64,000 nucleotides of DNA from Escherichia coli (GTDB lineage Bacteria > Pseudomonadota > Gammaproteobacteria > Enterobacterales > Enterobacteriaceae): the NCBI RefSeq assembly GCF_016903815.1, contig NZ_CP069973.1. One strand, given 5' to 3'. Of this stretch, positions 1-3,000 are shown piece after piece. The position numbers were made by a program. Numbering within the stretch: the stretch's first letter is position 1; each line of letters starts with the position of its first letter.

Positions 1-3000
1 TATTGGTGTACTGGAAAGCGGCATCACAGAGGCAATGTATCAGGAAATGGAACGGCTGATTGCTGATGCCAAACCTGCAAGCCGCCACCTTATTGGTCTG
101 AACATTACCCGGGACATTCCCGGCTACCTGTTTGCCGGTGGTGTGGCTTATGACGGCGATGTAATTACGGTTTACCCCGGATAAGTGAGGAATAATGAGC
201 ACAAAATTCAAAACCGTTATCACCACTGCCGGTGCAGCAAAGCTGGCAGCGGCAACCGCGCCGGGAGGGCGGAAGGTCAACATTACCACGATGGCCGTCG
301 GGGATGGCGGTGGTAAATTGCCTGTCCCGGATGCCGGACAGACCGGGCTTATCCACGAAGTCTGGCGACATGCGCTGAACAAAATCAGCCAGGACAAACG
401 AAACAGTAATTATATTATCGCAGAGCTGGTTATTCCGCCGGAGGTGGGCGGTTTCTGGATGCGTGAGCTTGGCCTGTACGATGATGCGGGAACGTTGATT
501 GCCGTGGCGAACATGGCCGAAAGTTATAAGCCTGCCCTTGCCGAAGGCTCAGGGCGTTCGCAGACCTGCCGCATGGTCATCATCGTCAGCAGTGTGGCCT
601 CAGTGGAGCTGACCATTGACACCACAACGGTGATGGCAACGCAGGATTATGTTGATGACAAAATTGCAGAACATGAACAGTCACGACGTCACCCTGACGC
701 CTCGCTGACCGCAAAAGGTTTTACTCAGTTAAGCAGTGCGACCAACAGCACGTCTGAAACACTGGCTGCAACGCCAAAAGCCGTTAAGACGGTAATGGAT
801 GAAACGAACAAGAAAGCGCCATTAAACAGCCCTGCACTGACCGGAACGCCAACGACGCCAACTGCGACAAAGGGGACTAATAATACTCAGATCGCAAACA
901 CGGCTTTCGTTATGACCGCGATTGCCGCCCTTGTAGACTCGTCACCTGACGCACTGAATACGCTGAACGAGCTGGCAGCGGCGCTGGGTAACGACCCGAA
1001 TTTTGCTACCACCATGACTAATGCGCTTGCGGGTAAGCAACCGAAAGATGCTACCCTGACGGCGCTGGCGGGGCTTGCTACTGCGGCAGACAGGTTTCCG
1101 TATTTTACGGGGAATGATGTTGCCAGTCTGGCAACTCTGACAAAAGTCGGGCGGGATATTCTTGCGAAATCGACCGTTGCCGCCGTTATCGAATATCTCG
1201 GTTTACAGGAAACGGTAAACCGAGCCGGGAACGCCGTGCAAAAAAATGGCGATACCTTGTCCGGTGGACTTACTTTTGAAAACGACTCAATCCTTGCCTG
1301 GATTCGAAATACTGACTGGGCGAAGATTGGATTTAAAAATGATGCCGATGGTGACACTGATTCATACATGTGGTTTGAAGCAGGCGACAACGGCAATGAA
1401 TATTTCAAATGGAGAAGCCGCCAGAGCACCACAACAAAAGACCTGATGAATCTTAAATGGGATGCTTTGTATGTTCTTGTTAAAGCCCTTTTCAGCAGTG
1501 AAGTAAAAATATCGACAGTCAATGCACTGAGGATATTTAATTCATCTTTTGGTGCTATTTTTCGTCGTTCTGAAGAATGCCTGCATATCATCCCTACACG
1601 AGAGAATGAGGGAGAAAATGGTGATATAGGGCCACTACGCCCCTTTACGCTTAATCTCAGAACTGGTCGGATAAGCATGGGGCATGGTCTTGATGTTACA
1701 GGGGATATATTTGCAAAACGTTTTGCAATTAACAGTAGTACCGGCATGTGGATTCATATGCGTGACCAGAATGTTATTTTGGGACGCAATGCGGTATCCA
1801 CCGATGGTGCGCAGGCATTACTTCGTCAGGACCACGCTGATCGCAAATTTATGATTGGTGGACTGGGGAATAAGCAATTTGGCATCTACATGATTAATAA
1901 CTCAAGGACAGCCAATGGCACCGATGGTCAGGCGTACATGGACAACAATGGCAACTGGCTTTGTGGCTCGCAAGTTATTCCTGGCAACTATGGCAATTTT
2001 GATTCCAGATATGTGAAAGATGTTCGACTTGGTTCACAGCAATATTATGGAGTGAACAACTGGCAAACATGGAATTTCCAGTGCCCGTCAGGTCATGTAT
2101 TGTCTGGTATTAATGTTCAGGATACAGGGTCCAACTCTGCCGATAATATAGCGGGCGTTTATTACAGACCCGTTCAAAAGTATATAAATGGCACCTGGTA
2201 TAATGTAGCGAGCGTTTAATATGATGCACTTAAAGAAAATAAAAGCGGGTAACGCTAAAACACTGGAACAGTATGAGTTAACAAAGAAACACGGAGTTAT
2301 CTGGCTTTACTCTGAGGACGGAAAAAACTGGTATGAGGAAGTGAAGAACTTTCAGCCAGATACAATAAAGATTGTTTACGATGAAAATAATATTATTGTC
2401 GCTATCACCAGAGATGCTTCAACGCTTAATCCTGAAGGTTTTAGCGTTGTCGAGGTTCCTGATATTACCGCCAACCGACGTGCTGATGACTCAGGGAAAT
2501 GGATGTTTAAGGATGGTGCCGTGATTAAGCGGATTTATACGGCAGACGAACAGCAACAACAGGCCGAATCACAAAAGGCCGCGTTACTTTCCGAAGCTGA
2601 ATCAGTTATCCAGCCGCTGGAACGCGCCGTCAGGCTGAATATGGCGACGGATGAGGAGCGCGCACGACTGGAGTCATGGGAACGCTACAGCGTTCTGGTC
2701 AGCCGTGTGGATCCTGCAAATCCTGAATGGCCGGAAATACCGCAATAAGTTGTATGATATCTGGAGTGAGCTAACGTATCTATGGCACAGAGTAAAACTT
2801 AATCTGACAGTCTGCTCTGTACCAAAAGCGGAACTTGCTTACATCGTGCTATGTTAGTTTGCTGGGAGCAGGTCATTATCTACGTGATTGCTATTTTATA
2901 ACTTGGATAAAATGGGGGATGAACATAATATCGAGACAGTGATTGCAGAGTTAGTCATTATAGGCGGGCATCAGTTCATGCCGGATCTCTAATGCAATTA

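Follow-up and report, generated by a model that had tools for sequence, protein, structure and literature searches.

Tail fibres of P2-like phages are most variable in two stretches, defined as hypervariable regions 1 and 2 (HR1 and HR2), and exchange of HR2 altered the host range of phage P88 (Chen et al. 2017, PMC5285337). In Mu and P1, the fibre gene S lies on an invertible segment with inverted gix or cix sites, a serine invertase and alternative fibres, an arrangement that the locus described here does not share. The S-U pairs of Mu, P1 and P7 include a modular chaperone, the tail fibre assembly protein (Tfa), in which the fibre-binding domain at the N-terminus varies and the C-terminal domain is conserved (PMC9608196); as summarized in that paper, the N-terminal domain of the Mu Tfa binds the distal fibre and remains on the virion, and the C-terminal domain is conserved. 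In the Shigella phage SfMu (KP010268), ORF52 and ORF51 form the fibre set, similar to Mu S/U, that lies on the gin side of the invertible G segment. P2 itself (AF063097), the reference used here, encodes its fibre and chaperone as genes H and G in the order I-H-G-(variable slot)-FI.

Here, we compare these systems with the fibre locus of a P2-like prophage in a 64-kb stretch of Escherichia coli DNA (the window), which differs from the matching genome of strain 7/2 (CP023820) by 93 mismatches over its whole length. The reading we favour, to which we assign a probability of about 0.88 with its proposed mechanism and consequence included, is that recombination has made the fibre gene a mosaic, composed of a P2 proximal half and an Sv-type module with an exchanged tip cassette. 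A Mu/P1-type tip in a P2-like prophage is a real, common and already annotated instance of a long-known kind of host-range module exchange, and the significance of the locus beyond correct annotation is slight.

A P2 shaft on an Sv-type module

The gene order is I-H-G-cargo-FI, as in P2, according to the ORFs of the window, the annotation of P2 and that of the matching genome in RefSeq. H thus holds the place of a P2-type fibre gene in the V-W-J-I-H-G late operon, ahead of the variable slot and FI. The features considered below are these:

195..2219, + strand: tail fibre gene H (gpH), an intact ORF of 674 aa (RefSeq WP_023148827.1, 'phage tail protein')
195..1181, + strand: P2-family-specific proximal part of H, comprising the collar domain (aa 1-151) and shaft; GC 0.546
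1182..1487, + strand: proximal portion of the Sv-type module; GC 0.444; identical to P2 and also common to the Mu, P7 and P88 fibres (sliding identity, informative sites)
1186..1211, + strand: relic gix/cix-like site, TTATCGAATATCTCGGTTTACAGGAA, coinciding with the GC step and with the start of homology to the Mu/P1/P7 Sv segments
1488..2048, + strand: HR1 (aa 432-618), non-P2, of the SfMu-ORF52 / P88 / P7-Sv' type, ending in the island 1984-2033
2049..2162, + strand: HR2 (aa 619-656), mapped by alignment onto P88 aa 716-746 and by tblastn with the tip
2163..2219, + strand: conserved C-terminus of H, kept in 7/7 aligned fibres
2221..2748, + strand: gene G (gpG), tail fibre assembly protein (Tfa) of 175 aa; Pfam Caudo_TAP 7.1e-37; full-length match to the Mu U chain 5YVQ_B, E 3.8e-101

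gpH matches the Pfam profiles Phage_tail_fib (1.9e-60), Phage_fiber_2 (3.5e-21) and Gp34_trimer (4.4e-11), and its N-terminal tail-collar fibre domain, PF12571, is a full-length profile match at aa 1-151 (1.9e-60). Over 195-1181 the gene is 94-96% identical to P2 in nucleotides and ~98% in amino acids. The shaft carries a single Phage_fiber_2 repeat, at 702-824, whereas reference P2 has two; a 44-aa gap relative to P2 after aa 177 is common to phage SIAC10 (NC_070904; Rousset et al. 2022), which likewise has a P2 backbone with a single shaft repeat.

The GC content of H steps from 0.55 to 0.44 at nt ~1182-1200, at the gix-like site. A search of the 64-kb window with the gix consensus returned this single match, against 0 expected by chance, with 3 mismatches in the left half-site; in both SfMu and P88, the two inverted-repeat copies each match the surrounding interval 1179-1219. 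The first-pass annotation had read the AT-richness of 1250-2219 as a signature of a swapped tip. The composition itself is as described (GC 0.433 vs 0.546 over 195-1181; GC3 0.41 vs 0.57), and it makes the interval a modest outlier that ranks at the 7th percentile among 970-nt stretches of the 64 kb. The AT-richness is not, however, evidence of a swap relative to P2, because GC in the P2 H gene falls in the same way at the corresponding point (from 0.56 to 0.44 and then 0.437); that gene has the same gix-like relic as well. Position 1250, proposed as the start of the divergent half, corresponds to aa 352 and tracks the composition step and not divergence.

Residues 331-673 of H align to residues 166-503 of the solved Mu fibre S (5YVQ_A, E 7e-147), making this part of H a homologue of Mu S, and G is a full-length homologue of U; the pair thus belongs by sequence to the fold family of Mu S with Tfa U (5YVQ) and of the P1 and P7 S-U pairs. 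At the sequence level, this match to the solved S/U complex is decisive. The P2-specific proximal half (aa 1-~330) would attach the trimeric fibre to the baseplate and would have been joined, at an ancient junction marked by the relic gix-like site, to the AT-richer 'Sv-type' distal module. The latter belongs to the family that serves in the invertible fibre segments of Mu, P1 and P7, and P2 itself has the same architecture.

The exchanged tip and its chaperone

Up to aa 431 (nt 1487), H is ~98% identical to reference P2 gpH in amino acids (92-100% outside the repeat gap), and identity then drops to 8-32% over about aa 432-660 (nt 1488-2174), which include HR1 and HR2. In blastn comparison with P2, nucleotides 1-1487 align at 94-96% identity, 1488-2174 yield no alignment except for a 50-nt island (1984-2033, encoding NYGNFDSRYVKDVRLG) that is conserved with P2, and homology restarts at 2175, in the last 15 codons of H, continuing at 88% to 2836. 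Similarity between the two proteins is confined to aa 1-431 and the final 15 aa, and the distal block differs from P2 by many indels. The first-pass annotation was therefore right that distal gpH diverges from P2 and that uniform identity from end to end does not hold, and its boundary at ~250 aa was set too early, since identity to P2 runs to aa 431. Its further proposal that the receptor-binding end was exchanged as a block relative to P2 is borne out by informative sites, whose ratios (P2:SfMu) pass from 13:20 to 1:56 at a switch from P2-like to SfMu-like sequence between 1450 and 1500, and from 1:26 through 4:6 to 18:3 at a return to P2-like sequence at ~2300-2400. Mixed informative sites across 2500-2700 blur the right breakpoint.

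When distal H is compared with phage tail fibres, as had been suggested, identity over its final 243 aa is 98.4% with SfMu ORF52 and 74-80% with P88, P7 Sv' and SIAC10, the upper values (78-80%) being those of P88 and PhiR68_1 and the lower (~74%) those of P7 Sv' and SIAC10; identity to Mu S, whose HR2 differs in both type and length, is 59.6%. In 60-nt windows, the distal block reaches 91-100% nucleotide identity to fibres of the Mu-like SfMu and the P1-like P7, and SfMu is 91.5% identical over 1182-2748 as a whole. HR1 is 93-98% identical in nucleotides to SfMu and, over 1461-1700, equally to P88, whose HR1 is of near-identical type. HR2, within which the peptide NNWQTWNFQCPSGHVLSGINVQDTG quoted by the first-pass annotation is present at aa 621-645, is identical to that of SIAC10, differs by 1 aa from that of SfMu ORF52, and is unlike the type common to P2, P88, P7 and AC1. 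SfMu shares both HR1 and HR2 with this fibre, and its Tfa is 96% identical over residues 1-45. Unlike the present locus, SfMu carries its variable part in an invertible segment beside Gin, fused to a Mu-type constant part; here, the segment is fixed on a P2 shaft, without an invertase. SIAC10 is 100% identical over H aa 553-674, HR2 included, and 98% over G residues 1-45, but in the early part of HR1 (aa ~433-552) it has Mu-S-type sequence, at 36-70% identity, and its downstream cargo gene is different.

gpG, whose PF02413 domain identifies it as a Tfa, starts 2 nt past the H stop codon. It had been proposed that this chaperone co-varies with the fibre tip; this applies to the first ~30 residues and not to the remainder. 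Co-variation with HR2 is limited to residues 1-31 (about nt 2221-2330), which are of another type in P2. Residues 1-45 are 96-98% identical among fibres with this HR2 and 71-78% in fibres with the P2-type HR2, whereas residues 46-175 are 92-97% identical across all relatives, P2 among them (97% from residue 46 on). HR2 and the 5' end of G co-occur in 763/765 E. coli records, and by analogy with the Mu Tfa the N-terminal domain of G is a putative docking element for the cognate tip that may be needed for the trimer to fold. The correspondence is not one-to-one, as the Mu U N-terminus is P2-type, yet the HR2 of Mu S is of a third type.

The HR2 + G-start cassette is present in 746/5,426 complete E. 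coli genomes (~14%), across several prophage families, and P2's own type in 346. Because the tip type described here is the commoner one, 'swapped relative to P2' hinges on the choice of reference: the term holds only with P2 so taken, and neither the direction of transfer nor the donor can be inferred.

Origin of the mosaic

Relative to reference P2, a cassette of ~850-900 nt (about 1488 to 2330-2400) has been replaced; it spans HR1, HR2 and the remainder of H and reaches ~35 codons into G. Its nearest sequenced relative is the unexpressed fibre segment of SfMu. The exchange may have occurred by homologous recombination between co-resident prophages, anchored in the conserved sequence at 1280-1487 and in the 3' two-thirds of G, and such recombination would move the tip and its docking partner, the N-terminal domain of the chaperone, together.

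The Shedu gene immediately downstream raises the question of one event or two. The tip swap had been presented as a natural partner of this cargo swap, and it is conceivable that both were imported as one functionally linked block: they are adjacent and both AT-rich (GC 0.44 and 0.40), and 36 genomes have both at identities of at least 99%. We consider this very unlikely. Between the two lies ~440-500 nt of P2-type sequence (2400-2836; informative sites 18:3 and 34:1, 87-97% identity), and the tip cassette is found with the Shedu cargo in only 45 of its 746 genomes. These two results led us to reject the single block, and other relatives agree: SIAC10 and SfMu have the tip without Shedu, SIAC10 combining the same HR2 with a different cargo. 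The cargo, moreover, fills the P2 fun(Z) slot, whose occupant is another gene in P2, in SIAC10 and in AC1, and is flanked by a conserved inverted repeat of its own. The Shedu swap is an event separate from the tip exchange, and the fibre mosaic and the adjoining defence-cargo swap are not to be scored as a single event.

Fibre tips are subject to diversifying selection. Under such selection, accelerated point mutation of a P2-type ancestor might have produced distal H in situ, with no horizontal exchange, and HR1 and HR2 are indeed the most variable regions of P2-like fibres (PMC5285337). Such a history would have to account for a block that is near-identical (98.4% in amino acids) to fibres of unrelated phage families (SfMu, P7), has sharp boundaries and differs from P2 by many indels; on sequence grounds, the block-wise identity to SfMu, P88 and P7 effectively refutes it.

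It is scarcely credible that the locus is an active invertible host-range switch of the Gin/Cin/Pin type, as in Mu, P1 and P88. The module is homologous to invertible-segment fibres and the gix-like sequence lies at its start; additionally, P88 (Peduoviridae, genus Xuanwuvirus) shows that a phage of this kind can have an invertase and an alternative fibre set. However, the degenerate gix-like site is the lone one in 64 kb, no second, inverted fibre/Tfa pair is found among the window ORFs (the Shedu cargo and then FI directly follow G), and no invertase is annotated in the prophage in the RefSeq annotation of the matching genome. On these three points we rejected the switch. Diversification of the tip by a diversity-generating retroelement (DGR), in which a reverse transcriptase (RT) rewrites a variable repeat (VR) from a template repeat (TR), has negligible probability and was rejected: the same prophage in strain 7/2 does have an RT-family gene ~15 kb upstream of the window, but that gene lies at old/tin, a known hotspot for defence genes in P2-like phages (PMC9122126), indels occur among the differences from relatives, which are not specific to adenine, and a search of window positions 1-6000 for direct repeats of at least 25 nt returned none, and thus no TR/VR pair of a DGR target.

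Receptor specificity

The recombinational mosaic would be expected to alter the fine specificity of the fibre for its LPS receptor, with a host range that probably still overlaps that of P2. Fibres of P2 (PMC9594776) and Mu (PMC11915804) bind LPS, and an O-antigen receptor has been reported for SfMu (PMC4406740); by analogy with these relatives, the present fibre may also be an LPS binder. A receptor changed relative to P2, as the first-pass annotation had it, is plausible but unproven. The tip swap need not alter host range qualitatively, because SIAC10, whose HR2 is identical, can be plated on E. coli C, as can P2; SIAC10 was isolated and propagated on that strain, the standard P2 host (PMC9122126). 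We rejected transfer of the SfMu O-antigen receptor to this tip, since the sequenced SfMu orientation expresses another fibre, ORF49, with which that receptor was probably measured (PMC4406740).

More doubtful is the proposal that the combination of P2 shaft, SfMu/P88-type HR1 and SIAC10/SfMu-type HR2 with matching Tfa N-terminus confers a receptor used by neither P2 nor Mu G(+). If so, one candidate receptor would be an O-antigen found in clinical E. coli lineages or one particular type of LPS core, and delivery vehicles based on P2 or pyocins could be retargeted with the cassette as a ready-made module. The cassette boundaries (~1488 to 2330-2400, with ~35 chaperone codons) represent natural fusion points for the engineering of P2-, pyocin- and cosmid-based particles. 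Compared with P88, whose HR2 (aa 716-746) lies at the homologous position, HR2 here has 7 additional residues and belongs to a different sequence type; the key P88 residue E744 aligns with I652, and P88 L730 aligns with the conserved L636.

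Fibre locus and its divergence from P2

The start of the window falls within a P2-like prophage of the E. coli chromosome, and strain 7/2 (CP023820) differs from the entire 64 kb by only 93 mismatches. The gene order, H-G-[fun(Z) slot]-FI, is that of P2 according to both the P2 annotation and the matching genome:

195-2219, +, H, tail fibre ORF of 674 aa; tail-collar fibre domain of P2 type at the N-terminus (PF12571, 1.9e-60), plus a single Phage_fiber_2 repeat and a domain resembling Gp34_trimer
2221-2748, +, G, 175-aa tail fibre assembly protein (Tfa) ORF; Caudo_TAP, 7.1e-37
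3039-4265, +, Shedu-family nuclease gene, 408 aa; Pfam SduA_C, 3e-33; RefSeq 'Shedu immune nuclease family protein' WP_023148825.1
4552-5742, sheath gene FI, after the Shedu gene

The H and G ORFs are intact, every domain is present, and the family has solved structures: the Mu fibre S (5YVQ_A residues 166-503) aligns with H 331-673 (E 7e-147), and Mu U (5YVQ_B) aligns with G over its full length (E 3.8e-101).

When H was aligned to the reference P2 gpH (AF063097) and scored per 50-aa bin, identity was 92-100% in all bins to aa 406, apart from one clean gap of 44 aa after aa 177, at P2's second fibre repeat copy. Successive bins then fall to 52%, 8%, 12%, 24% and 32%, and the final 22 aa climb back to 73%. 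At the nucleotide level, homology to P2 is 94-96% over 1-1487, is missing over 1488-2174 save for a 50-nt island (1984-2033), and returns at 88% from 2175 across all of G to 2836. The distal part of H is thus really divergent from P2, as the first-pass annotation had held; the break lies at aa 431, however, and not near aa 250. The gap reflects a 132-nt tandem copy-number difference: in H (702-824, +), as in SIAC10, the 44-aa Phage_fiber_2 repeat is present once, vs twice in reference P2.

A patchwork tip shared with other phages

The closest relatives of the distal part lie among phages of other families as well as P2-like ones.

Amino-acid identity to H aa 432-674 (tblastn against 50,697 phage records)
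SfMu ORF52: 98.4%
PhiR68_1 fibre: 79.8%
P88 fibre: 78.3%
SIAC10 fibre: 74.6%
RCS47 / P7 Sv': about 74.5%
Mu S: 59.6%
P1 S: 57%

Sliding identity and informative-site counts along the fibre reveal a patchwork, in which 1461-1880 sides with SfMu, P88 and P7 against SIAC10, all Mu-S-like fibres have 1881-2000 in common, and 2040-2300 sides with SfMu and SIAC10 against P88, P7 and P2. On the left, informative sites (P2:SfMu) switch from 13:20 (1401-1500) to 1:56 (1501-1600), and on the right from 1:26 (2201-2300) through 4:6 to 18:3 (2401-2500); the replaced cassette therefore extends from about 1488 to 2330-2400, taking in the first ~35 codons of G. Divergence of distal H in place is excluded: whole blocks are nearly identical to phages of other families, and the indels are many. 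Diversification of the tip by a diversity-generating retroelement (DGR) is likewise excluded, as a repeat search found no direct repeat of at least 25 nt in window 1-6000. This P2-like prophage is a genuine but ordinary case of tail-fibre tip mosaicism. Such mosaicism has reportedly been known since the work of Haggard-Ljungquist et al. in 1992.

Two hypervariable regions were defined in P2-like fibres (HR1, P88 aa 517-695; HR2, aa 716-746), and exchanging HR2, or residue 730 or 744 singly, altered the host range of P88 (Chen et al. 2017, PMC5285337). By alignment to P88, HR2 of H is aa 619-656 (nt 2049-2162); the peptide quoted in the first-pass annotation is present at aa 621-645, entirely within HR2. 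P88 L730 pairs with L636 of H, and E744 with I652.

The chaperone G was expected to co-vary with the tip, and does so in its N-terminal part. Residues 1-45 are 96-98% identical to Tfa of SIAC10 and SfMu, which share the HR2 of H, vs 71-78% identical to Tfa of P2, P88, AC1 and P7, which have P2-type HR2, whereas residues 46-175 are conserved in all these relatives (92-97%). A passage of PMC9608196 summarising North et al. 2019 describes Mu Tfa as modular: its C-terminal domain is conserved, while its variable N-terminal domain attaches to the distal fibre and remains part of the virion; the identity pattern of G is consistent with this architecture. The 291-nt stretch comprising HR2 and the 5' end of G occurs in 765 E. 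coli records, with both halves together in 763. Co-variation is nevertheless not strictly one-to-one, as the N-terminus of Mu U is of P2 type although the HR2 of Mu S is of a third type.

The fibre is presumably a trimer attached via aa 1-151, and its tip (both hypervariable regions, together with the bound G) would recognise LPS, the receptor reported for P2, Mu and SfMu; its specificity may differ from that of P2. E. coli C is the classical P2 host and a rough strain. It served for both isolation and propagation of SIAC10, whose HR2 is identical to that of H and whose G N-terminus is near-identical, but whose HR1 is of Mu-S type (PMC9122126). A rough host would point to a core-LPS receptor. 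The O-antigen receptor reported for SfMu was rejected as a guide to the H tip because SfMu was sequenced in the orientation from which ORF49, the other fibre, is expressed.

Composition step and crossover-site relic

The distal half of H is AT-rich as first described (GC 0.546 over 195-1181 vs 0.44 over 1182-2174; GC3 0.57 vs 0.41), but GC changes near nt 1182-1200, which places the step ~300 nt upstream of the P2 breakpoint, and GC of reference P2 H drops likewise at the corresponding point (0.56, then 0.44 and 0.437). AT-richness is therefore a trait of the distal module throughout this set of fibres, that of P2 among them; it does not tell the prophage fibre from the P2 fibre and is no signature of a swap relative to P2. 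A feature shared by P2 lies exactly where GC drops and Mu/P1 homology begins:

1186-1211, +, relic Gin/Cin-type crossover site, TTATCGAATATCTCGGTTTACAGGAA, inside the H coding sequence, encoding ...IEYLGLQE...

This is the sole match to the Gin/Cin crossover consensus in the 64-kb window (3 mismatches; 0 expected by chance), with the right half-site intact and all 3 mismatches in the left. An active inversion switch at the fibre locus is excluded, since the site is single and degenerate, no invertase is annotated in the prophage and there is no second fibre set. The relic coincides with a stretch (1179-1219) matching both inverted-repeat copies at the borders of the SfMu and P88 invertible fibre segments, and similarity to the variable fibre segments that SfMu, P7 and P88 carry begins exactly at this point. 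P2-type fibres thus owe their distal half to an old acquisition, an Sv-type module of the Mu/P1 kind. Haggard-Ljungquist et al. are said to have concluded as much in 1992 (J Bacteriol 174:1462). The same idea is cited in PMC9594776.

Prevalence and the cargo slot

The tip sequence is already in public genomes and annotated there: the exact 1250-2748 sequence (at least 99% identity) occurs in 36 complete E. coli genome records, its genes labelled 'phage tail protein' and 'tail fiber assembly protein'. The cassette of HR2 and G start occurs in 746 of 5,426 genomes (718 records at ≥95% identity), on chromosomes, at 64 places on plasmids and in fibres whose N-termini differ, vs 346 genomes (59 records at ≥95%) for the equivalent P2-reference cassette; 'divergent from P2' is therefore an effect of reference strain choice.

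The cargo slot, where the Shedu gene (GC 0.40) resides, spans 2837-4331, P2 homology stopping at 2836 and restarting at 4332. The first-pass annotation paired the tip swap with the cargo swap, a link not borne out: ~440-500 nt of P2-type sequence separate cassette and slot, the tip occurs in 746 genomes but together with Shedu in only 45, and SIAC10 and SfMu have the tip and lack Shedu. The two swaps are thus independent events. Of the 45 complete genomes, 36 are nearly identical and therefore probably clonal. The core idea of a tip swap stands, but not its original breakpoint, compositional argument or link to cargo.

A 32-nt inverted repeat (84% complementary; 2801-2832 / 4336-4367) brackets the cargo slot almost exactly, its arms sitting where P2 homology ends and restarts. 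Both arms recur in degenerate copies around fun(Z) of P2 (L001, the P2 reference record, ~5591-5624 and ~7699-7731) and around SIAC10's different cargo, and the repeat may be a conserved anchor of cargo exchange at this hotspot; the text of Rousset et al. 2022 has no mention of 'inverted repeat'.

In strain 7/2, the same prophage carries three further accessory genes upstream of the window (L007, the strain 7/2 record, 1226-3935 and 13727-14770). Upstream of the portal gene, presumably in the old/tin slot of P2, are an FRG-domain gene and a pair comprising HTH and reverse-transcriptase-family genes, and a 347-aa hypothetical gene occupies the orf30 slot; the prophage appears to hold accessory cargo at three variable slots. 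It ends after ogrK, at about 11150-11500, and is followed by host pflB-focA-ycaO-serC-aroA-cmk-rpsA-ihfB, which leaves ~53 kb of the window as ordinary core chromosome of E. coli. There, ompF (45926-47003, -) is a frameshifted pseudogene whose frame breaks and continues in another, and it is labelled 'frameshifted' also in near-identical strain 7/2.
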